Assembly: GCF_003231495.1 (NCBI RefSeq)
Contig: NZ_PQWO01000004.1
Coordinates: forward strand, 90,001 to 122,000
DNA length: 32,000 nt
Source of the DNA: Acaryochloris thomasi RCC1774
GTDB lineage: Bacteria; Cyanobacteriota; Cyanobacteriia; Thermosynechococcales; Thermosynechococcaceae
Direction: 5' to 3'
Both the position numbers and the translations under genes were made by a program. Shown piece after piece: positions 3,217 through 24,025 of the stretch. Position 1 is the stretch's first letter, and every line of letters starts with the position of its first letter. Below the pieces are notes generated by a model that saw only the letters and a list, made by a program, of their open reading frames with translations, was not told the DNA's origin and made no database searches.

Positions 3217-3265
3217 CAGCTAGGTGTTAAGGAATGGGCTGTAGTGTTGTGGTGCTCTGCACCGA

Positions 3266-4060: not shown

Positions 4061-4384
4061 CTGTTCTATCTCAATCCGTTAAGGCTAGTTTAGTGCAGAA
4101 TATTTTCCAGCGAATAACAACGTAATTAAAGGACAAGCGACGCGTCATCTTTTGAGCGGGGAGAGGTCGGACAGGGGCTATTTATGGGCGTTAATCTTTT
4201 CGGTTGGTGCAGACCGATTAATATCTGTTAATGATGGGTGGCTGTTCTTGTGCTTGCGATGAGCTGATATCGGTCTTCGACTATCGCATCTTCCAAATAG
4301 TCAAACAACACGATCCCCGCAACCATTCTGTATGATGGCATTAGGAAAGTTGCTATCAATTCCAGTGTTCGCTTAGCCCAAAGT

Positions 4385-5236: not shown

Positions 5237-5283
5237 TGGGGGCGTTCTGTGTCTGCTATTGCCGCGCTCGGTCTTTGGAGCCG

Positions 5284-5697
5284 TCAGTAGTCAACTTTCC
5301 CTCTTAGCGCTTTTAGCCGCCCACGTTTAGTTTTGCTCTCCATTCGTCTTTTTTGAGATCCTTTTGTAGGCTTTGTCGGTCTGCGTTTTTTGCGGGGGAT
5401 GGCGACGCTCTTGACCAAGGTCTGGAGACGATTTAGGGCTGCTTCTCGATTCTGCTCTTGACTACGATGCTGCTGCGATTTGATAACGATAATCCCATCT
5501 TTAGAAATCCGCTGATCGTTCAGCTTCAGCAAGCTCTCTTTATAAAAGTGGGGGAGTGACGAGGCTTGGATGTCAAAGCGTAGATGAATCGCTGTTGCTA
5601 CCTTATTTACGTTTTGCCCACCTGCACCTTGAGACCGAATGGCCTGTAGCTCAATTTCAGAGCTAGGGATGGATACGTGTTTGGAGATGGGCAGCAT
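5284..5697 (-). CDS. arfB: alternative ribosome rescue factor ArfB (GGQ peptidyl-tRNA hydrolase)
   Basis: 137-aa ORF with the [13 protein letters not shown] motif and a highly basic C-terminal tail (RKKRRPTKPTKGSQKRRMESKTKRGR), typical of ArfB/YaeJ. Confidence 0.9.
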   Translation of the reverse strand: MLPISKHVSIPSSEIELQAIRSQGAGGQNVNKVATAIHLRFDIQASSLPHFYKESLLKLNDQRISKDGIIVIKSQQHRSQEQNREAALNRLQTLVKSVAIPRKKRRPTKPTKGSQKRRMESKTKRGRLKALRGKVDY

Positions 5698-5891
5698 GAC
5701 TGGAAAATTGAAGTGAGTAGTATTGTGAGTGTAGCAATGAGGCTAAGCAACGCATTCACTTGGCTGCGGAATTATCTATTGTGTGTAGTAAATTCATTCG
5801 CCGGTGTTTAGATTGAAAAATGCAAGCGATAAGTGTATGACTTGAACATCAGGTGCACTTGCGAGTTAGATGATGCTTTGTACCTATCAAC

Positions 5892-6104
5892 TTATATATC
5901 ACTAGGCTCAAGTCCAGTTTTTTTAGAAATACGTGACAGCACACGAGGGCCAATTTCTTCTCTGTCATGGAAGGCAAAGACAAAATCCGGCCAGTCGTCA
6001 CGGGCAAGAATACGGTGAGAACCAGATTGGCGTTTAACGGTCCAGCCAATTTTGAGCAGTGCTGCCAAAACTCGTTTGGATTTAGTGCTTCCCCACTGGC
6101 TCAT
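5892..6104 (-). CDS. hicA: type II toxin HicA (mRNA interferase)
   Basis: 70-aa ORF. KRVLAALLKIGWTVKRQSGSHRIL...HDREEIGPRVLSRISKKTGL matches the HicA pattern, including the GSH catalytic His. It overlaps hicB by ATGA (6101..6104). Confidence 0.85.
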   Translation of the reverse strand: MSQWGSTKSKRVLAALLKIGWTVKRQSGSHRILARDDWPDFVFAFHDREEIGPRVLSRISKKTGLEPSDI

Positions 6105-6719: not shown

Positions 6720-8294
6720 TTATTGAGAAAAAGGGTTGTTTTTGGCCCAACGAGAAACAGCCAACTCAAGCACATCTAATTGCGGCTCAATCGATCTATA
6801 CCAATGCTTTCTTGCATCCGAGGGCATACAGCTTGCAGCTGCGAGGACCGCTCTACGTTGCCAGTGGGGGTGTTCAAAAAGAGTCCGCCACTGCGATTGA
6901 AACCAATGTCTTTGCTGAGATCGACCGATTGCTAGGATCAGTTTGCGCTTACATGCCTGATCACGTTCTCGATTGTAGATATTGACAAACTGATCTTCAT
7001 TATCCCACTCACGAGAACTCGTGAAAACCTGCATGATCCACATACGATGGTAAGCTAGCTCACTTACTATTGAATCTTCAAGTAAATCCAATATTCTTGA
7101 ACCCAGCATTGATCTTTCATCAACATTTAGAAATCTCAAGTTAGTAAAGTATGAAATTATATCGACAAAAGCGGGGATTAAAGATTCTAAATTGTCAAAA
7201 ATGTCTTCAATTATACCGTCATCTCCTAGCTGCCCTAAACGTCTAAGACAAAATTTGATTACAGGTAAATCGGGCACTTCAGAATCAGCCTCTTCTTGAA
7301 AAAGTTCTACAAGATTGAGGGCATCAACAATTTCTTTCTGTTCTAATGTTAGATCATCATATTCAATCTCTTCATAAGGATTTTCTAGTCCCAATTCTTC
7401 TATCAAGTTTTGAAAACGCTCATGAAGCGAATCCATCTCTCTATCTAACGGAGTAGCTAAGAATTGTTGGCGAAAATCCAGTGCAGGAAGTATAGCTGTT
7501 TTGTTGGGCTGGAGAGAAAGGCCATGATTTCGAAATAATGTTTCAGCTAAAAATGCTATTTGTTGATACGCCAACGTCTCACTAGAGGCAAATATTCGAT
7601 AGTCATCGTTGAATCGAATAAAATCAACGCCATTGGCTAAGAGCGCTTCGTCAACGTCGGAAAGAGCTGTCTCTGCCAATATTCTTGATGGGGCACTACC
7701 AACTGGAATACCGAAAGTTTCCGTTCCATTCCAACCGGACATTAGGCTCATTAGCCCTTTAACATGATTTGATTTTGTGGTCGCAGCACGTAATCCATTT
7801 TCGAGTCGATGATGGTAAATACGAGAGTAGAAATCTGATATGTCAGTGGTCGCAACGACACCAGTATCTCCATTAGATAAGAGTTTTGAGCGACACTTTT
7901 CCAGAAATTGTCTATATCCAATATCTGGCTCAAAAAGCTGACCTTCTCTCGTTGTCGCCACCCGATAGGAAAACACTCTTTCGTCCTGGGATGATATGCG
8001 TCGATCTTCCAAGTCATCTGCAATTTCATAAATTAGTGCAGAATAAACCAAAAAATCTAATGGATCAAGCTGTGTAATTACACGAAATCCATATTTCGCT
8101 TTTGGAGATAATAGAGTACGTGCTGGACGTGTACACCATTCTAATACATTTATATCTTTGAGCTTGTCGAGTACATTATCCCAATCATAAGAAATTGCTT
8201 GATATTCAAAAGGTGCTGGAAATACGTCTGTATCTCCAAATTCTAAAGCATGAGCTATTGCCCAATTCCAGCTTCGTTCTTGTAATTTAAGCAA
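6720..8294 (-). CDS. Abi/UG-type (defence-associated) reverse transcriptase with helical-repeat C-terminal domain
   Basis: 524-aa ORF with a TTG start at 8294.
RT motifs read in the translation:
- KYGFRVITQLDPLDFLVYSAL (motifs 1/2)
- VATTDISDFYSRIYHH (motif A)
- FGIPVGSAPSRILAETALSDVDEAL (motif B)
- FIRFNDDYRIFA (motif C, YxDD variant FNDD)
- HGLSLQPNKT (motif D)
The N-terminal AIAHALEFGDTDVFPAPFE is typical of bacterial non-LTR, non-intron RTs. About 220 C-terminal residues look alpha-helical-repeat-like. There is no maturase/endonuclease X domain and no retron VTG signature. Confidence 0.85.
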   Translation of the reverse strand: MLKLQERSWNWAIAHALEFGDTDVFPAPFEYQAISYDWDNVLDKLKDINVLEWCTRPARTLLSPKAKYGFRVITQLDPLDFLVYSALIYEIADDLEDRRISSQDERVFSYRVATTREGQLFEPDIGYRQFLEKCRSKLLSNGDTGVVATTDISDFYSRIYHHRLENGLRAATTKSNHVKGLMSLMSGWNGTETFGIPVGSAPSRILAETALSDVDEALLANGVDFIRFNDDYRIFASSETLAYQQIAFLAETLFRNHGLSLQPNKTAILPALDFRQQFLATPLDREMDSLHERFQNLIEELGLENPYEEIEYDDLTLEQKEIVDALNLVELFQEEADSEVPDLPVIKFCLRRLGQLGDDGIIEDIFDNLESLIPAFVDIISYFTNLRFLNVDERSMLGSRILDLLEDSIVSELAYHRMWIMQVFTSSREWDNEDQFVNIYNRERDQACKRKLILAIGRSQQRHWFQSQWRTLFEHPHWQRRAVLAAASCMPSDARKHWYRSIEPQLDVLELAVSRWAKNNPFSQ

Positions 8295-8762
8295 TAGAAT
8301 TCCTTAGTTTTATGGCTAACTATGTTTAGGAGGCAAATCGCCTCCTATCACGAACTTGACTGATAGCTTCTGTACCTCTAAAGCCAAGCCGTCACAAGCA
8401 TAGCAGTTGTACACAAAGATCTGTTTTCCAGAAATTTGCCGAGATGCAAATGAAAAATCGATTGCTCGTGAGCAAGTCTAGACAGGTATCTCAGCAGAAA
8501 ACTCATGAGTTATCCAAGGGCCCTATCAGGCAAACCTCCGGTCTATATTCTCCTGTCGGGCGTTATCAGGCGTTTCACCACCCAACCCATCAATGCTTGT
8601 TAACTCAGTATTCTGAAAGCAAGCAGTCTAAAAATTAGCTCTCTTGAGATGAAAATCAATAAGTCATGCATCGGTAAGAGCAGGATTGGAGCAATCACCG
8701 CCAAGATATTCTACGTCTCCATAATCCTCTAAATAACAGGTTAGTGATTCAGACTTTTTCTC
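8295..8762 (-). other. 468-nt ORF-poor leader between mnmE and the RT; candidate RT-associated ncRNA and promoter region (hypothesis)
   Basis: No convincing CDS on either strand.
Small hairpins, palindromes and repeats:
- hairpins at 8328-8346, 8434-8451 and 8462-8475
- palindrome at 8501-8510
- nested hairpin at 8595-8624
- 8-nt direct repeat TATCAGGC at 8524 and 8564
Known DRT2, DRT9 and retron systems place their ncRNA immediately upstream of the RT. Confidence 0.25.
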
Positions 8763-10136
8763 TTACTTTCCAATACAGAAGCGGCTAAAAATACGCTCCA
8801 AAACTGATTCGGTGGCTTCCTCCCCTGTGATTTCGCCCAAAGCATGAATAGCTCCACGTAGATCAATCGTCCAGAAGTCGAGGGGGAGCTGATCTGCGAT
8901 CGCAACCAACACAAACTCCAAAGATCCCTTCGCCTCAGTCAGCGCTGCCGCCTGCCGCTGATTGATGGCAACATCTAGATCCGCCGCCTGCAAACCGGCT
9001 TGAGTAATAGCGAGAATAGCCTGCTCTAAATCTTCAATCCCTTGTTGCTGGGCGGCCACTGTGGTTACAACTTGGGTAATAGCTGCCGGATAGTGAACCT
9101 GATCGGCATCGGCAAGATCGACTTTATTGATCACCAACACGAGCGGGCGATCTTGGACGGTTTCGTAGAGCTGCTGATCGGCCTCGGTCCAGCCGGATTC
9201 AGCATCCATCGTGAGTAAAATTAGGTCGGCGCTTTGGGCTGCAGTTTGCGATCGCAACACCCCAATCTGCTCCACTGGGTCCAAAGTCTCCCGAATTCCA
9301 GCAGTATCCAAAACCTGCACCGGAATGCCCCCGACCACCAATTGCGACTCCACCACATCTCGCGTGGTCCCCGGCAGCTCAGTGACAATAGCGCGATCGC
9401 TCCGACTCCAGGCATTGAGCAAACTCGATTTACCCACGTTGGGACGACCGACAATCGCCACTTTTAACCCTGACCGCAGTAGCTCTCCCTGGTCGGCAGT
9501 GCCTAAAATGCGCTTCAGTTCGGTGGCAATCTGCCTCAGTTCTGCCTGTACCTGTGCCTCATCAAGGGGTGGCAAATCATCTTCAAAATCAATGCGGGCC
9601 TCGATTTCAGCCAGCACATCTAAGCAGGACTGCCGCAACTGACGAATCGGCTGCGCTAATTTTCCCTGTAGTCCGGCTAAAGCGGTCTGGGCCGCTTGTG
9701 GTGACTGTGCGCCAACGAGATCAGCAATGCTTTCCGCTTGGGTCAGATCAAGACGGCCATTCAAGAAGGCTCGGAGAGTAAATTCTCCTGGTTGTGCTAA
9801 CTTTGCTCCGGCTTGAATGCAGGCCTGCAAAACTTGCTGCACAGCAATGATGCCGCCGTGACAGTGGAACTCAACCACATCTTCGCGGGTGTAGGAGCGA
9901 GGTGCCAGCATCAATAGCAGAAGGGCTTCATCGATGATTTGCCCCTCAGAGTCTTGGATGTGCCCGTAGAGGATGTGGTGGCTCTCCCATTTTTGGTGAC
10001 CAGGGGCGTGGAAGAGGTGGGTTGCGATCGCAACTGCCTCCGGCCCCGACAACCGCACGACCCCAATACTGCCCTGCTGGGGAACGATAGCGGTAGCAAT
10101 GGCGACAATGGTGGTAGTGGAGGTTGCAGATGGCAC
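8763..10136 (-). CDS. mnmE: tRNA uridine-5-carboxymethylaminomethyl modification GTPase MnmE (TrmE)
   Basis: [24 protein letters not shown]-terminus, G-domain motifs [15 protein letters not shown] and NKVD, and C-terminal FCIGK. The track ORF extends to 10277, but that extension is non-conserved and overlaps the divergent YkuD gene. GTG at 10136..10134 gives a typical length of about 457 aa. The start is uncertain. Confidence 0.9.
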
Positions 10137-10801
10137 AGCGGAAGATTGTGGTGGGGGTACTGATCCTATCGGGAGCAGCCGGATTGTATGGGGTATTGAG
10201 TCGCTTGGGCTACGTGACGCCCGTTTCGGCTCTCCCCAGTGTATTGTGTTTCGATGGCTGTCTGTCTGCAGAGGCAATGCATAAGCTACCGGCAGAGAAA
10301 GGACTTTTGAACGGCGATGCAGCTCTTACAAGTTTGCTCGGGACAGATACTCCCAATAAACAGAATATTTCGGTGCTGATTGAAAAGGCCAAATATCGAC
10401 TGACTATCTACGACGATCGCCAGCCCATCAAGTCCTATCCGATTGTGTTGGGGTCAGCGCCGACGGGGGACAAGCTGAGAGAGGGCGATCGCAAAACCCC
10501 TGAGGGTATCTTTCGGATCCGCGATCTGTATCCCCACGAGAGTTGGTCGAAGTTTCTGTGGCTCGACTATCCCAACAAAACCTCATGGCGTAAGCATCTA
10601 GCGGCCAAGCGATCAGGCAAGTTAGATTTGTCCGCTACGATTGGCGGTGAGGTTGGTATTCACGGTGTACCAGAAGGCAACGATGCCTGGATTGATGCTC
10701 GGCAGAACTGGACCTGGGGCTGTCCTTCGCTGAAGAATAAGGATATTGATGAAATATACAACGTTGTACAAGTCGGCACTGTCGTTGAGATTGTGCCCTA
10801 G
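10124..10801 (+). CDS. L,D-transpeptidase (YkuD domain) with N-terminal membrane anchor
   Basis: 225-aa ORF with a TM segment ([18 protein letters not shown]). YkuD pattern: [19 protein letters not shown]...[10 protein letters not shown]...IHG...WTWGCPSL (catalytic H...GC). Confidence 0.8.
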
Positions 10802-11090
10802 AGGCTTAGTTAGGGGAAAATTTAAATACCAAAGAAAATAGAGGACGCTTTATACGCTGTAGATATTAAACGTCAACTTATGCCCTTGAGCGTATATTTA
10901 ACTTTTGAAGAACGGTAGTCCTCATCAAAAGTTGAGACCGTAATCAGGCTCTGAGAAGTCTTGCGTTGAACTGGGTACAACAAACCTCATGAAAGCAGTG
11001 AAATCTCAAAATTCACCCTGCTGGCTGAGATTGCCACCTCGCTTTAAGGTGAAACCCTGACGTCAAAAAATGACGACTGCAAGGCAATTA

Positions 11091-12204
11091 TTACTCTGCG
11101 GTCATCTGGGTCTCCTGCCGGAGGTAGGCTTCGATAAAGGGGTCTAGAGCACCATCCATGACGTTCTCAACGGCGGTCGTTTCTTCATTCGTGCGCAAAT
11201 CTTTGACCATTTGGTAAGGATGAAAGACATAGTTGCGAATTTGGCTGCCCCAAGCCGCTTCCACCATGTCTCCGCGAATGTCGGCGATCTCTTGGGCCTT
11301 TTGTTCTTGGGCAATGATCAATAGTTTGGCTTTGAGCAACGCGAGGGCTTTCTCTTTGTTCTGGAGTTGCGATCGCTCCTGCGTACACCGCACCGCCAAG
11401 CCTGTTGGTAGATGAACAATCCTCACCGCCGTCTCCACCTTGTTGACGTTTTGTCCTCCCTTGCCGCCAGAAAGCGAAGTGGTAATCTCTAGATCTTTAT
11501 CGGGGAGATCTACCTGTACCTTTTCATCAATCTGGGGCATAATCTCGACCCCAGCAAAGCTTGTCTGGCGTTTGCCGTTGGCGTTAAAGGGCGAAATGCG
11601 GACTAATCGATGGGTTCCCTTCTCCGATTTTAGATAGCCGTAGGCGTAGCGACCGCTAATCTCTAGCGTGGCAGATTTGAGGCCGGCCTCGTCTCCCTCA
11701 GAGATCTCTGCGAGCTGCACCTTGTAGCCTTGGCGCTCAGCCCAGCGAGTATACATGCGTAGCAGCATCTCAGCCCAGTCTTGGGCATCCGTCCCACCTG
11801 CGCCAGCATTGAGGGTGAGAATAGCCCCATTCTGATCGTAAGGACCGGCTAACAGACGCTGTAGCTCCCACTGGTCGAGCTGTTGGCCGAGTGTTGTCAG
11901 ATCAGACTCGGCCTCGTCAAGGAGTGCCTGATCCGTTTCCAGTTCCAGGAGCTCTAAAACAGCTCTGGAATCTTCTAAAGTGTCCTGCCACTGCTGGAGC
12001 TGGTCAATACTAGCCTTGAGATCATTGAGATTCTGGAGTGTTTTCTGAGCGCTATCTTGGTCATCCCAAAAATCAGGCTGGGCTGCAAGCTGTTCTAGAT
12101 CAGCAATTTGAGCATTCAGGGCAGGTAGGTCAAAGATAGTCCTGGGTTTTACCCAGGCGATCAGAGAGTGTCGCGATCTCGCGTTTAAGATCTAAGGCTT
12201 CCAT
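11091..12204 (-). CDS. prfB: peptide chain release factor 2, requires programmed +1 ribosomal frameshift
   Basis: The track ORF 11091..11768 holds the C-terminal part, with SPF (RISPFNA) and GGQ ([15 protein letters not shown]). Hand translation from ATG 12204..12202 gives [24 protein letters not shown], then in-frame TGA at 12132..12130. Shifting +1 (skipping T 12132) reads [14 protein letters not shown]... in frame with 11768. Total is about 370 aa. Confidence 0.9.
12129..12135 (-). promoter_or_regulatory. RF2 autoregulatory +1 frameshift site CTT TGA C
   Basis: The minus-strand sequence ACCCAGGACTATCTTTGAC matches the canonical prfB shift site (CUU UGA C), with a weak SD-like AGGA a few nt upstream. 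Confidence 0.85.
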
Positions 12205-15251: not shown

Positions 15252-17006
15252 TTATGTTGTGTTGTTAGTGAATTGTTGCTGTTGACTGAGCAATTGAGCG
15301 GCCCGAGTGCCGTTTAAAGGACCAGCAAGGAAATAGCCTTGGGCGTCATTACAGCCCACCTTTGCCAACGCCTGCAGTTGCTGATTGTTTTCTACACCCT
15401 TTGCACTGACCTTGATCTTTAGCTCATGGGCTAGTTGGATAATCAGACCTACAGCAGTCTGATATTGTGGCTGACTGTGCATCAAAGAAGTAAGACAGGA
15501 TGGCGCCAACTTCAACGTATTGAGTGGTAGCTGCTGTAACGCATTCATCGCTGCATAGCTACCGCTAAAGTCATCGACGCATAGCTGAACCCCTAGCGCT
15601 CTCAGCTGTTCTAGAACAAGGCGAGAACGAGTGAGATGCTTGAGCAAGACCTGCTCATGGAACTCCAACTGCAGGTGTTGGGGCTTGATATTCGTTTCTT
15701 TGAGAACTTGAGAAATTTGCTGTGCTAAATGCGGCTGTTTGAACTGGACCGCTGATACGTTGACGCTCACCGTTAGAAAAGCGTGCGTCACCTTACACCA
15801 CTGCTGAATGCGAAAACAGGCTTCACGCATCAGCCAGAGGTCAATGGCACTCATAAGCCCAATGGACTCTGCGACCGGTAGAAATTTTAAAGGGGCAATG
15901 GAGCCGCGCTGTGGATGGAACCAACGGACGAAAGCCTCAAAACCTTCGATTACTTCACCTTTAATGGTCAGAATTGGCTGGTAATGGATCTGGAGGTCCT
16001 GATCGCCTACGGCCTGGTACAGATCATTCTCAAGTTGAAACTGCCTCACGGCTTGGTGGTGCATGAATGGTTCAAATATGACCAGTTGTGCACCACCCAA
16101 AGTTTTTGCTTGCTCCATTGCTGTGTGAGCATCACGCCAAAGATCTTGAGCCTGCTTATACTCCTCACGGCTACGCGCCAAACCCATGTTGGCTGAGATA
16201 ACAACCTCTTGATTGTTGAAAGTAAACGGAGATTTCAGTACTGTTAAAATCCGATTAGACAGATGAGTGACCTGCTCAAAGCTGACCACATAGGGGAACA
16301 AAAGAGCGAACTCATTGCTGTCACAGCGCGCCAGTACAGTCTCTGGAATCAAATATTCTTTGATGCGCCAAGCAAACTGGACAAGTAGCTGCTCGCTAGC
16401 GACGTGCCCTAAACTGCTCGCCAGCAGATTAAACTGATCAATGGAAATCATGAGAATTGCTGACTGGCCAGCTTTATCCTGCCGACAGATCTCAAAAGCT
16501 TGCGTGAGCTGTAGAGAAAGATATGTTTGATTGGGTAACCCTGTTAAGGCATCGTAAAAAGTGCTGTTAACAAGCTCTTGGCTGTTCTGCCTCCGGTCTG
16601 ATGAATAACTGAGCGAATTCTCCCTCGCTTTCTGAATAAGAGCTCCCTTTTCGTTAGCGCTAGCTTCTTGGGCTGCAATTAAGAGCAGTTGCTTCGTACC
16701 CACCGCTAAGATTGACGCTTCCAGATATAGTGTCTCACCTGCTTGAGTTTGCTCTGACCACAGCCCTGATTTTGCAATCTGCTGAGCTGCATGAGGCCAT
16801 TGAGTCTCAACGTCGGTTAAGAAATACTCTAGAAATGGAAAAACTTCAGATAGACAAGTGCTAGGCTGGCCATTTAATAATTCTGGCTTGACATCCGCAA
16901 GCCAAGCTGGCATTTGACCTACACTCTTGAAGTTCCGATCTGTCACCTTCTCATAGGTTGCGATGCCAAGGGCTGCTAGTAGTTCCGAAGTAATGGGATG
17001 ACTCAT
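15252..17006 (-). CDS. GGDEF-EAL domain signalling protein, both signatures degenerate
   Basis: GGDEF-fold region DALTGLPNQTYL...LMISIDQFNLL...ARCDSNEFALLFP (GGDEF replaced by DSNEF). EAL-fold region HYQPIL...GFEAFVRW...SVNVS...LEFHE...VDDFSGSYAA (EAL becomes EAF, ELTE becomes EFHE, DDFGTG becomes DDFSGS). N-terminal sensor-like domain of about 130 aa. Confidence 0.8.
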   Translation of the reverse strand: MSHPITSELLAALGIATYEKVTDRNFKSVGQMPAWLADVKPELLNGQPSTCLSEVFPFLEYFLTDVETQWPHAAQQIAKSGLWSEQTQAGETLYLEASILAVGTKQLLLIAAQEASANEKGALIQKARENSLSYSSDRRQNSQELVNSTFYDALTGLPNQTYLSLQLTQAFEICRQDKAGQSAILMISIDQFNLLASSLGHVASEQLLVQFAWRIKEYLIPETVLARCDSNEFALLFPYVVSFEQVTHLSNRILTVLKSPFTFNNQEVVISANMGLARSREEYKQAQDLWRDAHTAMEQAKTLGGAQLVIFEPFMHHQAVRQFQLENDLYQAVGDQDLQIHYQPILTIKGEVIEGFEAFVRWFHPQRGSIAPLKFLPVAESIGLMSAIDLWLMREACFRIQQWCKVTHAFLTVSVNVSAVQFKQPHLAQQISQVLKETNIKPQHLQLEFHEQVLLKHLTRSRLVLEQLRALGVQLCVDDFSGSYAAMNALQQLPLNTLKLAPSCLTSLMHSQPQYQTAVGLIIQLAHELKIKVSAKGVENNQQLQALAKVGCNDAQGYFLAGPLNGTRAAQLLSQQQQFTNNTT

Positions 17007-17008
17007 AC

Positions 17009-18016
17009 CTAAGGACGACAGAAGTATATTGTCATTGAACTAGAATCCTTGAAAGATAGCTCTGATTGGGTAAAGGTATCTTGATCGCGGGTCAAGTGGC
17101 TAAAGGTTTGGGCGTCGATCATCAGTTCTCTGGGGCGAATATGGCCTGTCAAGCCAATAATTTCAGGCATTTGAGGACTGATCAATCCCATACTTTGGTA
17201 AGGACTGGCGCGCAACAGACCTAAAGCTGATTTCCCCGATGTCACCATGGCCCCGGCCTCAAAACTTATGTCTAACTTAGATAGTGGTTTGTTTGTTGGG
17301 GAGGGGATTGGTTCAGATCCTGCGCTCAAAATCTCTCGACCTGCTTCAACAGCCTGTTGGGCAGGAGATAGCGGCACGGGTACTAAACCAAAGATTGCTA
17401 AAATCGTACGTCCCATCTGGGCAGTAACAACCCCCGAACGATCAACAACGGTTGTCGTTACTGCCGCAAAATATGTCTCAATGGCCTGAATGACGGTCAT
17501 GGGGGCTGCTGCCTCAGCATCCATTAATGGGGTGATTGTGATGTTGAGAATCGCAACATCGACGAGAGCAGAGAAATGAGAATCATCGGCGTTGAGCGAA
17601 GAGGGGCGGCTCTGAAAAAGAGACGAAAGATGCCGTTTCTGTTGTTGAGTCTTAAGGGCCAGATAATTTCCCTGCTGCTGCAGTTCTAGCTGCTGCTCTT
17701 CTGCCTCACTGCCGTCCAGAAGTAAGATCCAGTCGCTGTCAGTTGCAGGAACAATATGAATGTCCATTGAGCGTCCCTGCTGATCCTTTACCAGGGGTAA
17801 AAAAATAGGGTCATTTTCTAAAGGAATGAGGCCGGTTAAGACGTCAAGGCTATTGTGGGCAGTATCTCCTCGCTGTAACGTCTGTAACTCGTAATGTTCA
17901 AGCTGCCCACCAAGTTCTAAGATGGTGCCGTTTGCATCAACTCTGAGGTAGGCAGGCAAATATTGTTCTGCAATGTAGTCACAGATATGTTGAGCGAGTG
18001 GTGAGGGAAGGGTCAC
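17009..18016 (-). CDS. hypothetical signalling protein with degenerate class III nucleotidyl cyclase-like C-terminal domain
   Basis: 335-aa ORF with a GTG start. Residues of about 150-230 (VAILNITITPLMDAE...VIQAIETYFAAVTTTVVDRSGVVTAQMGRTILAIFGLVP...AVEAGREIL) follow the cyclase-homology-domain pattern, but the metal-binding Asp positions are substituted. The N-terminal domain ends with a PAS-like WILLLDGSEAEEQQLE. Assignment is by eye only. Confidence 0.45.
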   Translation of the reverse strand: MTLPSPLAQHICDYIAEQYLPAYLRVDANGTILELGGQLEHYELQTLQRGDTAHNSLDVLTGLIPLENDPIFLPLVKDQQGRSMDIHIVPATDSDWILLLDGSEAEEQQLELQQQGNYLALKTQQQKRHLSSLFQSRPSSLNADDSHFSALVDVAILNITITPLMDAEAAAPMTVIQAIETYFAAVTTTVVDRSGVVTAQMGRTILAIFGLVPVPLSPAQQAVEAGREILSAGSEPIPSPTNKPLSKLDISFEAGAMVTSGKSALGLLRASPYQSMGLISPQMPEIIGLTGHIRPRELMIDAQTFSHLTRDQDTFTQSELSFKDSSSMTIYFCRP

Positions 18017-18020
18017 TATA

Positions 18021-18521
18021 CTAACGGTTAACCATTTGGGTGGCTAAACTGTGAAAGCATTCTTCAACCCCAAGCCCTGCTTTCGCGCTGCTTTTGATCA
18101 CAGTCCACTGACTGTCTTTAGAAAGCTGTTCAATGGTTTGCTCATCGAGTTCCCATTCGCTGGTCAAATCAGACTTATTCAACATCATCATAATCGGTAC
18201 ATCACCAATCTCTTTCTTTATTTCAGCTTGAAGAGAGATCGCTTTATCTAAGGTTTCACTACGTGTCCCATCAACAACAAGGATATAGCCTGATGAACCT
18301 CTGAGATAAGACATCCTGATCTCTTGAAATTCATCTTCCCCATGAATATCCCACAGGATCAAATTGACCGTTTGCTCTCCAATTTGCATGGTTTTCTTGT
18401 CAATCTTGACGCCCACGGTTGTTTGATATTTGTCAGAGTAAATACCTCTAACAAACCGTGAGACCAAGCTTGTTTTCCCTGTCGCGAAGGCACCAATCAT
18501 GCAAATCTTCTTTTGCAGCAT
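18021..18521 (-). CDS. Ras-superfamily small GTPase (Rab/Ras-like, prokaryotic Rup/MglA-like group)
   Basis: 166 aa. Motifs: G1 GAFATGKTS, G2 TTVGV, G3 WDIHGED, G4 NKSD, G5 SSAK. There are no extra domains. Confidence 0.85.
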   Translation of the reverse strand: MLQKKICMIGAFATGKTSLVSRFVRGIYSDKYQTTVGVKIDKKTMQIGEQTVNLILWDIHGEDEFQEIRMSYLRGSSGYILVVDGTRSETLDKAISLQAEIKKEIGDVPIMMMLNKSDLTSEWELDEQTIEQLSKDSQWTVIKSSAKAGLGVEECFHSLATQMVNR

Positions 18522-18534
18522 ATATGAATCAAAG

Positions 18535-20280
18535 TTATTCCAAAGTTACCTTAAACGAAACTCGGCGTTCTGACAGACCCTGCTCTTGTGTTTGAGGACC
18601 TTGAGCAGCTCCAAGGGGCTTTATCTTCAAAATCGATGGGCTGATTTGACGACGCATGAGACGCTCTCGAATTGCATTGGCTCGTGCCTGACTGATTAAG
18701 AAGTTCTCACGCTCTGTTCCTACCCTATCAGCTCGCCCTTCGATGGAGAGGATAAGCTTGAGGTTGAGGGCGGTTGCGAGCTGTGTCGCGGCTTCCACAT
18801 CCTGGGCAAGCTGTTGAAATACAGATTCGCTGGTAGGCAGGGGTTGCGATCGCCCTTCGTCGAACAAAATATTGCGTCCTTCAATTTGCTTTTGTAGGCG
18901 ATTAAGAGTTTGCCGTTCAGCAGGCTTGAGCTGTTCTGTGCTGATCTGCATGACGCCAGGAATCTGTAGAGCTTGTTTCTGTAGCTGCGCGATCCAGTCT
19001 TGCTTTGCGGTGCCTGCTGCTATCAGCGTATTCTGCCCATCAACGGAGAGGGATACTGTCGCAGGAGGCTGGAGGCGCTGCTCGGCTCTGGCTTTTACTA
19101 GCTCTGGATGAAAAGAAAGGTATGGCTCCCAGGTTGTTTTGACTTTTTGCGGGTTTATCTTGTTGGGTTCTGCGAGGGAGAGCGGATCGACGGCTAGAGG
19201 GTCGCGCATGCCTGAAATCAAAATCTTGCGGTTTTTCAGCTTGCTGTCTACGATAACCAGCCCCGGTCGCTGCTGCAGAGTTGCTACATAGTTACCCATC
19301 ACTTTGCGGCGTTGATAGACGCCAAAGAGCTGCCAGCCTATGCCCAGCAGAATTAGGCCAAGGAAGAGCCAAGCTAGCGGGGAAAGAGAGCGTCGCTTGG
19401 GTTTAAATTGAGCCTGTAGACACTCTTGTAGATAGGGCTGGCTTTGGGCAAAGGCGGTGTCGTCTCCCTGAAATTGCTTGAGGTCTTGGCTGCAAACAAG
19501 ATGAATCTTTTCTAGGACATCCTGAAATAATCCCCGAATGTCTTGGGGGGCTGTTCCCCGAATGACGCAGGCCATCAGCGCTTGGGGACCTTCCTCAATC
19601 CAGACGGTGAGTTCGCCGAATTGGAGGGTCTCGAGAGAATCTCCCCCCTCAACACGAAAGGAGTCTTTAATAAAGTCTTGAATAGCGGTCAACATAGCTG
19701 AGACGAGGTCTGCATCCTGGGCAATCACTGTGTCAGCGACAAGCTGCTGCAGCAGAAGGCCGGTATCTTTATGAATAAGCAGGACCTGCTCCACTTGATA
19801 GAGGAGGGTGCGCAGCAGCACAATCTCGGCGAAAGATTTACCGGTTCGTGCGGCTTCGATACGCCATTGAAAGCTTTGGAGAGACAGACTATGCTCTAGT
19901 CCTTCATTTAGAGATTGCGTTAAGTTCTGCAGAGCGGCGGAAACAGCTTTACGCGTTGCTGGACCAATGACGGGGAATAGCGCTTCGGACAGAATATTAT
20001 GATCTTGATTGACGGAATTTCGAATGGCATCTTCAACGGTGGGAACGGCGGCAGTGGTTAATTTCCCCTGGTCTTCAGCACTCAGAATGATTGCCTCTGG
20101 CAAGGCGCGGCTGATATCTTCTGGACGCAGCTTGAGATTCATGATCCGAGCCTGCAGTTCTGGTCCTAAGAGAAGCGATCGCAACTCATCAAGACTCTCT
20201 CCAGACTCATCAAGATGCTTATCCGGCTTATCTTGATTGTGCTGGGAGGATGGATTGTTCTCGGATGACAGATCGTGCAT
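18535..20280 (-). CDS. membrane protein with cytoplasmic N-terminal region and periplasmic OmpA/MotB-like C-terminal domain
   Basis: 581 aa with a single central TM helix (LSPLAWLFLGLILLGIGWQLFGVY). C-terminal OmpA_C pattern: LSIEGRADRVGTERENFLISQARANAIRERL...PLGAAQ. The cytoplasmic part contains a Roadblock/LC7-like stretch (VEQVLLIHKDTGLLLQQ...DADLVSAMLTAIQDFIKDSF...LQFGELTVWIEEGPQALMACVIRG). Confidence 0.75.
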   Translation of the reverse strand: MHDLSSENNPSSQHNQDKPDKHLDESGESLDELRSLLLGPELQARIMNLKLRPEDISRALPEAIILSAEDQGKLTTAAVPTVEDAIRNSVNQDHNILSEALFPVIGPATRKAVSAALQNLTQSLNEGLEHSLSLQSFQWRIEAARTGKSFAEIVLLRTLLYQVEQVLLIHKDTGLLLQQLVADTVIAQDADLVSAMLTAIQDFIKDSFRVEGGDSLETLQFGELTVWIEEGPQALMACVIRGTAPQDIRGLFQDVLEKIHLVCSQDLKQFQGDDTAFAQSQPYLQECLQAQFKPKRRSLSPLAWLFLGLILLGIGWQLFGVYQRRKVMGNYVATLQQRPGLVIVDSKLKNRKILISGMRDPLAVDPLSLAEPNKINPQKVKTTWEPYLSFHPELVKARAEQRLQPPATVSLSVDGQNTLIAAGTAKQDWIAQLQKQALQIPGVMQISTEQLKPAERQTLNRLQKQIEGRNILFDEGRSQPLPTSESVFQQLAQDVEAATQLATALNLKLILSIEGRADRVGTERENFLISQARANAIRERLMRRQISPSILKIKPLGAAQGPQTQEQGLSERRVSFKVTLE

Positions 20281-20314
20281 GAAGAAGTCTCAAGCGTTCC
20301 GTGTGAGTGGGCGG

Positions 20315-20938
20315 TTAGTCAGCCTGGAGGCGTACCGACATTTCACCAAAGAACGATGCTAGGTTTGCTCGATCCGTTTTATCCACTGTATGCAGAATTG
20401 CAACTTCTCTTTCTACAATTGTGAGCAGCTCATTGTACTTTTGAATGCTGTCAGCACTTAGCTGATTGCTTTGCTCCAACAATTGCTTCCGCAGGCTGCG
20501 CTCACTCTCAGTTGTTCTCTCATCAAGCTGACTGAGCTTTTGCTCCAGTGCTTTCGTTGCTGAGAGCTGTGCTTGCTCAAGTCTTTCGGCGTTATTAGCC
20601 TGAATTTGCTTTGTCTCTTTGATTTGCTCACTCAAAGAACCCACTTCCTGTTGAATGTAGCTTTCTAGAGCGTCAAGACGCCGATTAACATCGCTGCGTA
20701 AAGTATTACATTCTTGCTCTAGACGCTCCTCTAGGCGAGCAAATCGTTGATCATGAGTACGAACCTGGCTACCAAACAAGATCTCTCTAATCTTCTCTAA
20801 ATTATGCAGATCTGGCGGTGCATCACTTATACCTTGTACAGTCATGACATTTTCATTTTGATCATGATTCATCTGCGCAAGGCTTTGCTGCTCCTGATTG
20901 TTCGATGTGTCATGGTTCTGTTCGTCATACTGCGTCAT
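20315..20938 (-). CDS. coiled-coil protein, function unknown
   Basis: 207 aa. A Gln/Asn-rich N-terminus is followed by a long heptad-like, Glu/Leu/Gln-rich region. It is the first gene of the minus-strand cluster. Confidence 0.6.
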   Translation of the reverse strand: MTQYDEQNHDTSNNQEQQSLAQMNHDQNENVMTVQGISDAPPDLHNLEKIREILFGSQVRTHDQRFARLEERLEQECNTLRSDVNRRLDALESYIQQEVGSLSEQIKETKQIQANNAERLEQAQLSATKALEQKLSQLDERTTESERSLRKQLLEQSNQLSADSIQKYNELLTIVEREVAILHTVDKTDRANLASFFGEMSVRLQAD

Positions 20939-21000
20939 GATTTCCCCCTTGAAAAAGACAATTTAAGCATTGCATGAAGACAATCACACACTCATCGATG

Positions 21001-21047
21001 TTGATTGAGAGCAAGTCAAAACTACTGCCAGACTTGCTCTCAATCAA
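21001..21047. promoter_or_regulatory. perfect 17-bp inverted repeat (TTGATTGAGAGCAAGTC / GACTTGCTCTCAATCAA) with 13-nt spacer
   Basis: Read directly: arms at 21001-21017 and 21031-21047 are exact reverse complements. It lies 63-109 nt upstream of the coiled-coil gene start (20938), in the divergent intergenic region. Confidence 0.7.
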
Positions 21048-21457
21048 GATGTCTTTTAGGCATTGTCTGCGATACAGGTATTTATCACTGCAATTGCTCA
21101 GGTCATATGCTTATTATTGCATGCTCCTATGGCAGCATGAGAGACCTGCAGAGCAAAGAAATTTTGCTTTCTTACGGCAGCGGCAGCGATTTTTAAACTA
21201 CGAAAAAAAATAATCGTGCAGGTCTGTAAGGATGGCTCAGCGTTGCTCTATTCACGCTCGTGCCCAATATTGAACTATAATCCTTTGCTGGAGGTTAAAG
21301 TCGCACCTCTGAAGCCTCTATAGCCTATCTGTCTGTTGCTCTCAGATAATGCTGCCCAAGATCGATAGGATTCTCAGTTCTCTCCATACTACGGCCTTTT
21401 CAAACAGCCGGTTGCGAACGCCTATCCTGATCTTTCTCGTCCGTAGGAGCACTTAAC

Positions 21458-22483
21458 TTGGGTTTGTTCAACCGTTTTTCCTCAGACATTGGTATTGATC
21501 TAGGCACAGCGAATACCCTCGTCTATCTTTCGAATCGAGGAATTGTGCTGAGAGAGCCGTCAGTGCTAACACGAGATCCGAACACTCAAGAGCTTCTCGG
21601 GGTTGGCAGTCAAGCCGAAGCCATGATCGGTCGAACGCCTGCAGAAATTGAAGTTGTTCATCCTCTGCAGGACGGGGTAATTACCCAGCCTAAAGTGGCA
21701 CAACTTCTGCTAGAGCATGTGGTCAGAGAGGCACTCAACGGGCGATCTCTCTTGCCCCCCCGCGTTGTCATTAGTATGCCGATGGGGGCCAGCAGTGTTG
21801 AACGGCGTGCCTTGTTTGATATTGCCGGTCAAATTGGCGCACGAGAGGCCTACCTGATCGAAGAGCCAATGGCAGCGGCCATTGGTGCTGGTTTGCCGAT
21901 TACCACCCCTGTCGGTAACCTGGTCATTGATATTGGTGGTGGCACCACAGAGATTGCAGTTCTAAGCTATTTAGGAGTTGCCGTTAGTCGGTCTATTCCG
22001 ATTGGGGGTGATCTACTTGATCGCACCATCATGCAAAGGGTGAAGCAAGATCACAGTCTTTTGATTGGCAAATTGATGGCAAGATCCATTAAACATCAGC
22101 TTGCTGCGGTCTATCCTAACTCCGTCTCAGATCAGCAAGAGATGGAAATTAGAGGGCTTGATCTGCGCTCAGGTTTACCCCGGTGGTTTAATTTACGGGG
22201 TGGAGAAGTACGAGAATATGTATCTGCTTCTATTGCCACTATCGCCACCAGCATCAAGCAGGTCTTAGAGAAAACCCCGCCAGAGCTTGCCGCTGATATC
22301 CTAGAGCGCGGCATGATATTGACGGGGGGCGGGGCTTTACTCAAGGGAATCGACCTTTATTTAAGTCGAGAGGTGGGGCTTGTGGCTCAGGTTGCCCCAG
22401 ACCCTCTAGACTGCGTTGCACTAGGAACAGGAATAGTGCTTGAACAGTTTCCAGAAATGAAGCGGGTCTTGCTGAGTTCTTAA
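21458..22483 (+). CDS. mreB: MreB-family actin-like ATPase (rod-shape protein homologue), solitary
   Basis: 341 aa. Motifs: IGIDLGTANTLVY (phosphate 1), VIDIGGGTTEIAV (phosphate 2), ILTGGGALL (adenosine). Collinear with E. coli MreB throughout. TTG start at 21458 with TAGGAG 8 nt upstream. No mreC or mreD follows. Confidence 0.85.
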   Translation: MGLFNRFSSDIGIDLGTANTLVYLSNRGIVLREPSVLTRDPNTQELLGVGSQAEAMIGRTPAEIEVVHPLQDGVITQPKVAQLLLEHVVREALNGRSLLPPRVVISMPMGASSVERRALFDIAGQIGAREAYLIEEPMAAAIGAGLPITTPVGNLVIDIGGGTTEIAVLSYLGVAVSRSIPIGGDLLDRTIMQRVKQDHSLLIGKLMARSIKHQLAAVYPNSVSDQQEMEIRGLDLRSGLPRWFNLRGGEVREYVSASIATIATSIKQVLEKTPPELAADILERGMILTGGGALLKGIDLYLSREVGLVAQVAPDPLDCVALGTGIVLEQFPEMKRVLLSS

Positions 22484-22513: not shown

Positions 22514-24025
22514 TTACCACCCACTCTCAATGCTGCTCATCGCTTGTACATGGGCTGGATCATCAGCCTGTACGTCACTATCTTCAATCACGTATACGTC
22601 ATGGATGGCCCTTCTAGCATTATCCGCAATGACCGCATTGGTGAGTAAACTCAGTGCTTCTGGTTGATCAAGATTATTCAGTGCTCCTGCATATTTGCGG
22701 CTGTGGGTAGGGCGAACAGACTCTTGGCAATAGCTAGAAAGTTCACGACTGGCCGTCATTACTTCATAGGCAAACTGCTTTTCTTGGTCGTTGCCAAAGA
22801 GGGCGGTGTATAACAGATTGATCATTGATGAGTCGTGGACCTGGATCTTGTATTTGGTTGTGATTTGAGACCAGTATCTCAAGGCCTTGAGGCCCTCTAG
22901 CCCGCCTGTATTGAGACCGGAGTTCTCACACCACCGCTCAAATTCTTCGACATTGAAGGGACACCGCTGCTGCGATCGCATAAATTTAGCCAGCACTTGA
23001 CCTGCCTGGAAATTTCGTGTGGGTTGTCCCGTCACCGGCAGCATCATGCTGCCCCGCACATCTGCCACCATTGCCGTGAGCTGGGAGAATGTATGGTCGC
23101 GCACCTTTTCCATGTTGCCTCCCGAGTTGAGTGTGGCCTCAATGCGAGGTACACCATAGCCTAACTCTGTTAGTTCAATGGGCTGGTTGTTGTAGAGTGC
23201 ATTTCGATCTCGGCGAGACATAGAAACGGTGGCTGCTTGATCCAGGCACTGATCTAGCAGTAGCGTAAGTAAAGTTGGCAGAATGCCAGGGTTCTCCCGA
23301 TGGTATTCATAGCCAAACCCAGCGAAGATTGAGGCCATGTTTTTTGCCGCTTTAATATACTGGGCCTCAATATTGTGAACACCGGGTGAAACCTGGATAT
23401 TAGGGGAGAGCTTATCGAGCATTCGCGCCCCCAGTAAGGCCGTTAGAGCATTAGGGTGACAAAAATTAGCTGTGAAGCTATCTACGGGAGCACGTAGAGC
23501 GCCATGGCGATGAAAACCTGTGAAGAAGGCTAAATTAGGCTGTTTTTCGCACAGTACATAGGCATCGTTCAGCACCGCATCGTGACTGAAGGATCCGGCA
23601 AGGCAGGCTAAGACAACCGTCTTGCGACCCAGCTTCTTTCTCAACCGACAGGCTTCCTCTAGATCTTGCTCAATGTAATTACTGTTGGCGCTCAAAATGA
23701 CGAGGTCACACTCTAAAATCAAATCTTCTAGCGTATTGGCAACCCACTCGTCGTTCTTTTTTGTGTGTGCAAGATTATGCATGCTCACCACATAATCTCG
23801 GTCCATGCCTTGGATGGCTTCTTTAGAAAATGCACCCATCAGTTCTCGCCCTGGACGAGGTGCTAGCAGCAAAGATGAACCGCCAGCCTGCATGACTGCG
23901 TTGTACACCAGTGATCCTGGATAAAGGCCAATACTATAGAGGCCAATCTTTGCCTGCTCCAGCTCACGAATACGCCTGTTGATATTGGCTTTATCTAAAG
24001 ACTGCTCAAAGAAACTATTCTGCAT
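22514..24025 (-). CDS. hypothetical protein, distantly glycerol-3-phosphate dehydrogenase (GpsA)-like fold
   Basis: 503 aa. It has an N-terminal Rossmann-like strand-loop (IGLYSIGLYPGSLVYNAV), CDLVILSANSNYIEQ (compare GpsA ADLVILAVPS) and GVHNIEAQYIKAAKNMASIFAGFGYEY (compare GpsA GVE..GALKNV.AIA.G). Resemblance is judged by eye only. Confidence 0.45.
   Translation of the reverse strand: MQNSFFEQSLDKANINRRIRELEQAKIGLYSIGLYPGSLVYNAVMQAGGSSLLLAPRPGRELMGAFSKEAIQGMDRDYVVSMHNLAHTKKNDEWVANTLEDLILECDLVILSANSNYIEQDLEEACRLRKKLGRKTVVLACLAGSFSHDAVLNDAYVLCEKQPNLAFFTGFHRHGALRAPVDSFTANFCHPNALTALLGARMLDKLSPNIQVSPGVHNIEAQYIKAAKNMASIFAGFGYEYHRENPGILPTLLTLLLDQCLDQAATVSMSRRDRNALYNNQPIELTELGYGVPRIEATLNSGGNMEKVRDHTFSQLTAMVADVRGSMMLPVTGQPTRNFQAGQVLAKFMRSQQRCPFNVEEFERWCENSGLNTGGLEGLKALRYWSQITTKYKIQVHDSSMINLLYTALFGNDQEKQFAYEVMTASRELSSYCQESVRPTHSRKYAGALNNLDQPEALSLLTNAVIADNARRAIHDVYVIEDSDVQADDPAHVQAMSSIESGW

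Follow-up and report, generated by a model that had tools for sequence, protein, structure and literature searches.

A probable Group 1 Rup small-GTPase module with degenerate second-messenger domains in the cyanobacterium Acaryochloris thomasi RCC1774

What does a eukaryote-like small GTPase control in a cyanobacterium when it is encoded together with a peptidoglycan-binding membrane protein and with proteins whose second-messenger domains have lost their catalytic residues? This question is raised by five genes of Acaryochloris thomasi RCC1774, which lie in a stretch of 32,000 nt (contig NZ_PQWO01000004.1, positions 90,001-122,000, forward strand) that was analysed as a whole and is referred to here as the window; coordinates are those of the window unless another locus is named. 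The five open reading frames (ORFs) are all on the minus strand, are separated by intergenic gaps of 34, 13, 4 and 2 nt, and encode the following proteins (aa, amino acids; p4N and outN are N-terminal domains described further below):

20938-20315 (-): coiled-coil protein, 207 aa (ORF; family present in 80/87 of the related loci described below)
20280-18535 (-): OmpA protein, 581 aa, bitopic (ORF, Pfam, transmembrane scan)
18521-18021 (-): small GTPase, very probably Rup1, 166 aa (ORF, Pfam Ras)
18016-17009 (-): 335-aa protein, p4N plus pseudo-cyclase, GTG start (ORF, profile against PDB)
17006-15252 (-): output protein, 584 aa, outN-GGDEF-EAL (ORF, Pfam)

These ORF positions bear out the operon-like packing of the original prediction, which had been made from the sequence alone, and the searches of Pfam and NCBIfam and the profile comparisons with PDB likewise agree with all five of its domain calls, including the hard call of a pseudo-cyclase that had been made by eye. 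The five genes are an operon as judged by spacing and synteny, from which a single transcript is inferred. Promoter and terminator scans of the window were uninformative, with scores below shuffled expectation, and an Rfam scan of the window identified no RNA family.

The operon very probably represents a Group 1 Rup (Rup1) small-GTPase signalling module, because the GTPase matches Pfam Ras (PF00071, E=2.6e-33), its closest relatives in PDB are Rab proteins (Rab23, Rab6 and Rab1), and the neighbourhood agrees with the published one in each of its items. No record matched the exact sequence of the GTPase. The protein contains a G1 motif GAFATGKT (aa 10-17), T34/35, a G3 motif DIHG(ED) (aa 58-63), NKSD (aa 115-118) and SAK (aa 145-147), and the motifs G1-G5 are therefore present as predicted; the designation "complete" needs qualification, since the catalytic Gln after G3 is replaced by Glu (WDIHGEDEF in the window versus WDTAGQEEF in Rab23), and GED is at least 97% conserved over the 87 loci. 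With a length below 240 aa, eukaryote-like G1-G5 motifs including the Asp of G3, and no catalytic Gln, the protein has the features of a Rup1 GTPase, whereas this same G3 Asp places it outside the MglA family.

The Group 1 Rup neighbourhood was described computationally by Wuichet & Søgaard-Andersen in 2014 (PMC4316618). In the parts of that paper drawn on here, Rup GTPases have eukaryote-like G motifs without the G3 Gln, and the neighbours of Rup1 are a coiled-coil protein, a protein combining a conserved unknown domain with a membrane helix and an OmpA domain, and an output protein of the GGDEF-EAL or histidine-kinase type, the N-terminal region of which carries an invariant Gln that was suggested to be supplied in trans, as in some eukaryotic GTPase-activating proteins (GAPs). 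The same parts report that no Rup had been characterised at that time, that no cooperation with MglB homologues is predicted for Rup proteins, that Group 1 Rup sequences from the same lineage mostly group together, which was taken as a sign of vertical inheritance, and that trees place Rup1 with eukaryotic Rab, Ras, Rho and Ran (PMC4316618); a later study treats Rup1 only as a phylogenetic group together with Rab/Ras/Rho/Ran and Asgard RasL (bioRxiv 2024.02.28.582541). Every component given there, and the taxa (cyanobacteria and others), match the window operon, in which the GTPase gene is accompanied by an adjacent gene for a coiled-coil protein, one for a protein with an unknown domain, a transmembrane helix and an OmpA domain, and one for an output protein with outN and its invariant Gln. 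The system is a known, computationally defined family, and the window copy differs from it in that all its second-messenger domains are degenerate and in having an atypical MreB neighbour, the latter being peculiar to the window's clade, i.e. the window copy and its relatives L001, L004 and L006 (four members). While the published description, as far as used here, treats the output as a c-di-GMP enzyme and gives three conserved neighbour genes (PMC4316618), the GGDEF and EAL domains in the window are degenerate, and a gene for p4N (with pseudo-cyclase) is added. The original prediction had held that the gene combination is without characterised function: the combination had in fact already been described, while the lack of experimental characterisation agrees with our search of the open literature, in which no experimental or functional study of Rup1 was found (most subscription journals are outside its coverage, and the name is swamped by plant RUP1).

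We used the GTPase alignment to scan the GTDB species representatives, which gave at least 582 loci, of which the best 80 were kept. Hidden Markov models of the components were built from the loci in hand and used to scan all ORFs of 87 loci, where some of the apparent absences fall at contig ends:

Coiled-coil gene: present in 80/87 loci
OmpA-type gene: present in 85/87 loci
Fourth gene, p4N alone: 50/87 loci
Fourth gene, p4N plus cyclase domain: 19/87 loci
Fourth gene, fused to the output protein: 2/87 loci (L069, L085)
Fourth gene absent: 16/87 loci
Output gene, outN plus histidine-kinase ATPase: 64/87 loci
Output gene, outN plus GGDEF-EAL: 12/87 loci

Most of these loci are cyanobacterial, and others are from Blastocatellia/Acidobacteriota, Desulfobacterota, Sericytochromatia and some metagenome-assembled genomes (MAGs) labelled as Firmicutes. 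The same five genes are found in the same order in L001, L004 and L006; Acaryochloris marina, Calothrix NIES-2098 and Trichocoleus/Coleofasciculus also have, in this order, the coiled-coil protein, OmpA protein, GTPase, fourth gene and output gene, the order is shared by the 80 GTDB loci, and the Desulfobacterota loci L089 and L092 have kept all components in a different arrangement. The search for co-conservation that the original prediction had asked for thus shows that the genes travel together, with hardly any exception, in 87 loci and several phyla, and their co-occurrence is far beyond chance. A Coleofasciculaceae MAG (L031) contains two Rup1 modules side by side (2822-5942 and 7439-11849 of that locus), one with fully canonical cyclase residues and the other with a histidine-kinase output, which could serve to ask whether paralogous modules are insulated. 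In Calothrix NIES-2098 (L009), the gene for the hormogonium-motility coiled-coil protein HmpF (20641-21869 of that locus) is located ~9 kb downstream of the Rup1 operon, a proximity that is probably coincidental.

How the GTPase could be linked to the cell envelope is suggested by the OmpA protein, the only one of the five with a transmembrane helix, and with a single one, in a hydropathy scan. From the N-terminus it consists of a short motif, a helical region, a predicted longin/Roadblock-like domain, the transmembrane helix, a periplasmic region and an OmpA-like domain, with these coordinates:

19411-19833 (-): predicted longin/Roadblock-fold domain, aa ~150-290 (AlphaFold2, Foldseek)
19312-19389 (-): transmembrane helix, aa 298-323, without Asp (hydropathy scan)
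18571-18864 (-): OmpA-like peptidoglycan-binding domain, aa 473-570 (Pfam PF00691)

The OmpA-like domain (E=5.6e-10, 39.9 bits versus a gathering cutoff of 27.2) keeps the Asp and Arg of the TD...RA motif (GRADRVG...SQARA); in OmpA-like domains these conserved residues bind the diaminopimelic acid moiety. The earlier description of the protein as MotB-like is true of this domain but goes no further, as the transmembrane helix has no Asp and there is no MotA partner: MotA-type genes were absent from the operon and from its relatives (L001, L004, L006, Acaryochloris, Calothrix, Trichocoleus), and the NCBIfam MotB match (E=0.03), being limited to the OmpA-like part, does not identify a MotB stator. 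Full-length homologues of the protein number more than 1400 (1423) in cyanobacteria, and its cytoplasmic domain is carried by 4162 representative clusters (E<=1e-3).

A Pfam search gave no match for this cytoplasmic domain, nor for p4N or outN. An AlphaFold2 model of aa 1-300, based on a 91-sequence alignment, has predicted local distance difference test (pLDDT) values of 75-89 over aa 150-290 and an a-b-b-a-b-b-b-a topology (a, helix; b, strand), and nearly all PDB matches listed by Foldseek with this predicted model as query are longin/Roadblock proteins or complexes built on them: Mon1-Ccz1 (E=1.1e-4), MglB (~1e-3), AP sigma, GATOR1, Asgard Roadblock, LAMTOR, TRAPP and CPLANE, with Foldseek probability 1.0, E-values of 1e-4 to 5e-3 and template modelling (TM) scores of 0.5-0.68 on the targets, without sequence support. 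A Roadblock-like region had been mentioned in the original prediction, and this model with its Foldseek matches supports it. As longin/Roadblock is the fold of guanine nucleotide exchange factor (GEF) and GAP platforms for small GTPases, the modelled domain is a candidate GEF/GAP platform for Rup. Within the window's clade it is the most conserved segment (87% mean identity), with Rup second (81.5%), while the periplasmic and OmpA-like parts share 55-61% identity.

The 207-aa protein was called a coiled coil from its composition, being rich in Leu, Glu, Gln and Arg, with no Pro and no transmembrane helix. Its N-terminal region contains LEKIREILFG (aa 47-56), which resembles LDELRSLLLG (aa 30-39) of the OmpA protein. 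This shared motif, noticed in the original prediction for the two window proteins, proved to be real and family-wide: the pattern L-x-x-h-R-x-h-h-h-G (h, hydrophobic) was identified in 72 of the 80 coiled-coil proteins and 61 of the 85 OmpA proteins, but the three remaining families of the Rup loci do not have it in any member. Such a pattern would fit a short docking motif.

With regard to the 335-aa protein, two regions could be delimited:

17612-18016 (-): p4N, aa 1-135 (71/87 loci)
17099-17557 (-): degenerate class III cyclase-homology domain, aa 154-306 (profile against PDB, residue alignment)

The protein has no Pfam or NCBIfam match, but a profile of 8 homologues matches class III cyclases in PDB (Cya2, 2w01, E=2.2e-6; CyaC, 1wc0, E=1.4e-3). 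In the window all five positions that define an active class III cyclase are replaced, with the two metal-binding Asp residues changed to Thr and Arg, the specificity Lys/Glu to Ala, and the transition-state Asn and Arg to Pro and Gly, respectively, whereas L031, L036 and L053 keep all five (D, K, D, N, R). Between loci the domain ranges from fully canonical, as in these three, through partly to fully degenerate; the latter state is found in the window's clade, Acaryochloris and others, and the domain is absent in the Nostocales. The pseudo-cyclase has few close relatives (8 clusters, 51-78% identity), and a profile search of genome contigs with its alignment gave no match. The p4N domain carries an invariant QQxxN (aa 113-117) on a helix, and occurs alone (~133 aa), with a cyclase domain, or fused to outN (L069, L085), and is a common fifth component of the Rup1 module that is added by the present analysis. 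Its fold is probably PAS-like according to structure prediction, and the Foldseek matches of the model of the 335-aa protein (PAS-linker-cyclase architectures) are a weak hint only. The possibility that p4N and outN are paralogous domains was rejected (hhalign probability 0.6%); their fusion in two unrelated loci argues that both act together.

Similarly, the output protein consists of three parts:

16602-17006 (-): outN, aa 1-135 (83/87 loci, fused to histidine kinase or GGDEF-EAL)
16095-16559 (-): degenerate GGDEF domain, DSNEF at aa 229-233 (Pfam, MorA alignment)
15318-16028 (-): degenerate EAL domain, EAFVR at aa 357-361 and KGVE at aa 536-539 (Pfam, MorA alignment)

In outN, Gln125 and Arg128 (IQKAR) are invariant, with Gln125 at least 97% conserved in 83 outN domains. 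Both other domains are readily recognised by Pfam (GGDEF E=1.7e-30, EAL E=2.7e-61), and their residues were aligned to those of the active enzyme MorA (4rnh). The GGDEF site reads DSNEF, with SID in place of DxD, AS of ND and SE of GD, so that the metal- and guanine-binding residues are lost, and there is no upstream RxxD I-site. The EAL domain has kept the Glu and Arg of EAxxR (EAFVR), the Asn, ExxE, DD, Lys and QG, while EAL has changed to EAF, loop 6 from DDFGTGYSS to DDFSGSYAA, KID to KLA, EGVE to KGVE, and the Thr of ELTE to His. The protein therefore has the residues of neither an active diguanylate cyclase nor an active EAL phosphodiesterase. The KGVE sequence is found in 4/4 clade members and EAF in 3/4, whereas the 8 GGDEF-EAL outputs that do not belong to the window's clade all show canonical EAL, N, EITE, DDFGTGY, KID, AE[GRQ]VE and [GS][GS]DEF. 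The degeneracy of the cyclase, GGDEF and EAL domains thus holds on alignment to active enzymes, and the claim that the operon has only degenerate second-messenger domains is true in the window's clade; it does not extend to the relatives, which have canonical EAL domains, in some cases a canonical cyclase, and mostly a histidine kinase. Sequence comparison within the clade gave 110/241 invariant positions for EAL and 66/158 for GGDEF, with no frameshift. As the three domains are catalytically dead yet conserved, the output would have to be binding or scaffolding. On balance, we favour the reading that the operon is a Rup1 module in a derived form, in which the enzymatic outputs have turned into pseudo-enzymes.

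For the Rup1 module in general we propose a tentative chain of steps, in which our confidence is less than even. The bitopic OmpA protein would be tied to the peptidoglycan and pass an envelope cue through its single transmembrane helix to the cytoplasmic longin/Roadblock-fold domain, which would set the nucleotide state of Rup, acting either as a GEF or within a GAP. Docking of the coiled-coil protein may occur via its LxxhRxhhhG motif, either on the OmpA protein or on a partner common to both. Rup in its GTP-bound form would bind p4N and outN, and the Gln and Arg of outN may supply in trans what the active site of the GTPase lacks, following the suggestion of Wuichet & Søgaard-Andersen in the part of their paper cited above (PMC4316618). 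In most genomes Rup would then switch a histidine kinase or a c-di-GMP phosphodiesterase, whereas in the window's clade the output would be binding or scaffolding, possibly through binding of c-di-GMP by the EAL remnant, possibly through contact with the MreB-like protein.

Several points weigh against this interpretation. The longin/Roadblock fold comes from a single AlphaFold2 model with an overall pLDDT of 61.8 and modest Foldseek E-values (1e-4 to 5e-3); a profile of the domain found no match in PDB, and Pfam Robl_LC7 was matched only below threshold, in 2/28 members of the domain family, although a fold invisible to sequence methods would explain why it was overlooked earlier. The PAS-like assignment of p4N is derived from a model with a pLDDT of 42, made from 8 sequences only, and p4N and outN are not detectably homologous and so need not bind Rup alike. 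Transcription as a single unit is argued from spacing and synteny, and the direction of signalling, the choice between GEF and GAP and the role of the coiled-coil protein are guesses.

Comparison with characterised systems gives parallels at the level of folds and of gene sets. The MglA/MglB pair of Myxococcus and Thermus likewise consists of a small Ras-like GTPase and an adjacently encoded Roadblock-fold regulator, but the window GTPase is Rab-like, the predicted Roadblock-like domain of the operon resides in a membrane protein and does not resemble MglB in sequence, so that the likeness is at the level of a predicted fold, and no Frz, RomR or motility genes are found near the operon. The actinobacterial conservons (CvnA-D / Mfp) are also membrane-linked signalling sets of several genes, in which a small GTPase and an accessory protein accompany a Roadblock protein and a membrane protein of sensor type, an analogy drawn by Wuichet & Søgaard-Andersen themselves in the part of their paper used here (PMC4316618), although their GTPase belongs to MglA group 2, the membrane protein is a histidine kinase, the Roadblock protein stands by itself, and the window operon has nothing that corresponds to DUF742. 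In eukaryotes, Rab-like GTPases are paired with longin/Roadblock-fold partners, as in the longin GEFs (Mon1-Ccz1/Rab7, TRAPP/Rab1, CPLANE/Rab23) and in Ragulator/Rag; here Mon1-Ccz1 is the best structural match, the likeness is again at fold level only (13-22% identity, TM scores of 0.5-0.68 on the target), the eukaryotic partners are heterodimers whereas the window protein has one domain, and this partner is a bacterial protein anchored to membrane and peptidoglycan, with a GEF role that is only predicted.

Of the other explanations for the degenerate domains, the one that survives best is that they read second messengers, as the original prediction had suggested: the EAL domain, and perhaps the GGDEF and cyclase domains, would be c-di-GMP or cNMP (cyclic nucleotide monophosphate) receptors that gate the GTPase switch in response to nucleotides produced by other enzymes. 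This is possible, though rather doubtful as a whole, and is compatible with the derived Rup1 module, either as its output or as its input step. Tandem GGDEF-EAL domains with both signatures degenerate are likewise found in FimX, LapD and CsrD; the PDB matches of the output protein include FimX, and LapD and CsrD appear in the list of related families in NCBIfam. The combination of retained EAL residues listed above with the loss of the general-base/metal Glu (KGVE) and of loop 6 recalls the degenerate EAL receptors FimX and LapD, and the substitutions are fixed across four lineages. The parallel is limited in that the N-termini of these proteins are REC, PAS or HAMP domains versus outN, the change of Glu to Lys in EGVE is peculiar to the window's clade, and this Lys, which takes the place of a metal-binding Glu, may just as well prevent binding. 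The GGDEF domain lacks both the RxxD I-site and the guanine-binding Asn/Asp, and the cyclase domain has lost every checked nucleotide-contact residue. Reading of second messengers would be plausible for the EAL domain only.

A second explanation is that the dead cyclase, GGDEF and EAL domains are leftovers, with the working system consisting of the coiled-coil protein, OmpA protein, Rup, p4N and outN. The Nostocales are already without the cyclase domain, and the occurrence of p4N alone in 50/87 loci and the absence of the fourth gene in 16 indicate that the family can do without this domain; in the clade, the pseudo-enzyme domains also show the lowest conservation, with 57-62% identity versus 81-87% for the core. 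This lower conservation has to be set against the periplasmic and OmpA-like parts, which are no better conserved (55-61%), and relics would not be expected to remain free of frameshifts and truncations in four lineages differing by up to ~48% in these proteins, or to keep so many invariant EAL and GGDEF positions as well as their replacement residues (KGVE in all, EAF in 3/4). We consider it unlikely that they are relics.

A third explanation involves the genes that follow upstream of the operon:

20939-21457 (no strand): intergenic region separating the operon from the divergently transcribed MreB-like gene (conserved block)
21458-22483 (+): divergent MreB-family gene, 341 aa (Pfam MreB_Mbl, 1.2e-119)
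22514-24025 (-): 503-aa protein (no Pfam, NCBIfam, PADLOC or PDB sequence match)

The MreB-like protein satisfies the definition of the MreB/Mbl family, as it retains the ATPase motifs and passes the NCBIfam cutoffs (PRK13927, 406.6 versus 293; TIGR00904, 390.6 versus 365.75). Its identity to 80 generic MreBs averages 47%, whereas these share 68% mutually, and substitutions (e.g. R68H, D77Q, R181P, R206L, E209R) are found at 46/131 positions that are near-universal in MreB, the RPxxDGVIAD and GERTAE motifs among them; mreC and mreD do not follow the gene. From its sequence it may be a specialised MreB paralogue. A metagenome scan with this protein found only MreBs of up to 52% identity, on contigs with names that are largely bioreactor, gut or other environmental. 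A block at ~21264-21295 in the intergenic region is conserved in 4/4 clade members and reads TATAAT on the mreB strand.

The Rup module could accordingly steer an MreB-like filament in cell shape, polarity or gliding, with the pseudo-enzymes as adaptors. The MreB-like gene divergently adjoins the operon in all four clade members (the window, L001, L004 and L006), followed by the convergent 503-aa gene, despite outer flanks that vary among them, the 83 Rup loci outside the clade have no MreB at a distance of up to 10 kb, and the clade with this atypical MreB neighbour is the clade that lost the enzymatic output. In Myxococcus, MglA(-GTP) binds MreB, the modelled Roadblock-like partner of Rup would recall MglB, and there is a precedent in Bdellovibrio, where MglA/RomR is associated with the degenerate GGDEF protein CdgA. 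However, the adjacency represents one evolutionary event in a narrow clade and may be inherited synteny, and functional coupling is therefore only a hypothesis; in addition, the presence of the second neighbour, the gene for the 503-aa protein, is plainly incidental, Rup lies outside the MglA family of GTPases, and the MreB-like protein still passes the MreB cutoffs. Control of a cytoskeletal filament is for these reasons improbable. A low probability also applies to the combined proposal that the partner of Rup1 is a membrane-anchored longin/Roadblock regulator and that the module of this clade has been rewired to pseudo-enzyme scaffolds controlling an MreB-like filament.

An anti-phage defence system consisting of a small GTPase and a membrane anchor can be dismissed as very improbable and was rejected, since PADLOC gave nothing meaningful: a Drt8 reverse transcriptase is encoded ~7 kb away and there are weak PADLOC matches to ZorA/ZorB for the coiled-coil and OmpA-like parts, but these are generic (coiled coil, MotB/OmpA domain; E 6e-4 or worse), and the chromosomal module occurs nearly throughout several cyanobacterial orders, amid housekeeping genes in different genomes, unlike patchy defence islands, with vertical inheritance of Group 1 Rup indicated in the cited part of the earlier analysis (PMC4316618).

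Within the block, the gene for the 503-aa protein shows the highest conservation (80-89% within the window's clade). Its product is a core protein of cyanobacteria and has at least 637 homologues, with ~70% identity across Pleurocapsales, Acaryochloris, Synechococcus PCC 7336 and Leptolyngbya. It was rejected as part of the system, being a widespread family with varied neighbours elsewhere, never MreB or Rup: in Acaryochloris it is found in an lpxA/lpxB-fabZ-lpxC-Omp85 cluster, a setting that may point to a role in the outer membrane or in lipid A, while in Synechococcus PCC 7336 and Myxosarcina it is next to other genes. On the other side of the operon, L001 (12754-19036), L004 (10220-15755) and L006 (12740-17966; coordinates of the respective loci) have a DUF6208 gene and a gene for a giant protein (1400-1760+ aa) on the opposite strand, the latter running off the contigs, and the equivalent position in the window has a hydrophobic ORF of 208 aa and a gene for a FAD-dependent oxidoreductase-like protein of 690 aa.

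The reverse transcriptase (524 aa, 6720-8294, minus strand) is a full-length PADLOC match to Drt8 (E=2e-161), scores far too low for the NCBIfam models of Drt4/5 and of reverse transcriptases from group II introns, and Rfam found no group II intron RNA. It lies in a low-GC patch (~7000-9000, GC 0.40-0.43 versus ~0.50 elsewhere), and the GC drop together with the Drt8 match suggests a horizontally acquired defence gene. The prfB gene for release factor 2 (11091-12204, minus strand) contains the classic programmed +1 frameshift site CTT TGA C (12130-12132), with a short leader frame followed by the main frame, an ordinary arrangement that ORF callers split. The alternative ribosome-rescue hydrolase ArfB is encoded at 5284-5697 (minus strand; NCBIfam E=5e-58), adjoined by a gene for a metallo-beta-lactamase-fold RNase Z-like or cyclic-nucleotide-phosphodiesterase-like protein (4385-5236, plus strand), and ArfB and prfB place two translation-termination/rescue factors less than 7 kb apart.

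The Rup1 GTPases are the closest bacterial relatives of Rab, Ras, Rho and Ran from eukaryotes, and with its at least 582 loci the Rup1 module is an abundant Rab-like switch. The predicted longin/Roadblock regulator inside the OmpA protein provides a concrete, testable first hypothesis for a GEF or GAP, and if it is true, the pairing of Rab and longin GEF in eukaryotic membrane traffic would have an envelope-tied counterpart in bacteria. Finally, the window's clade represents a natural experiment, in which the same core is combined with three inactivated enzymatic outputs and an atypical MreB alongside, and its comparison with Acaryochloris loci with an active-looking EAL domain could reveal what the Rup switch controls.

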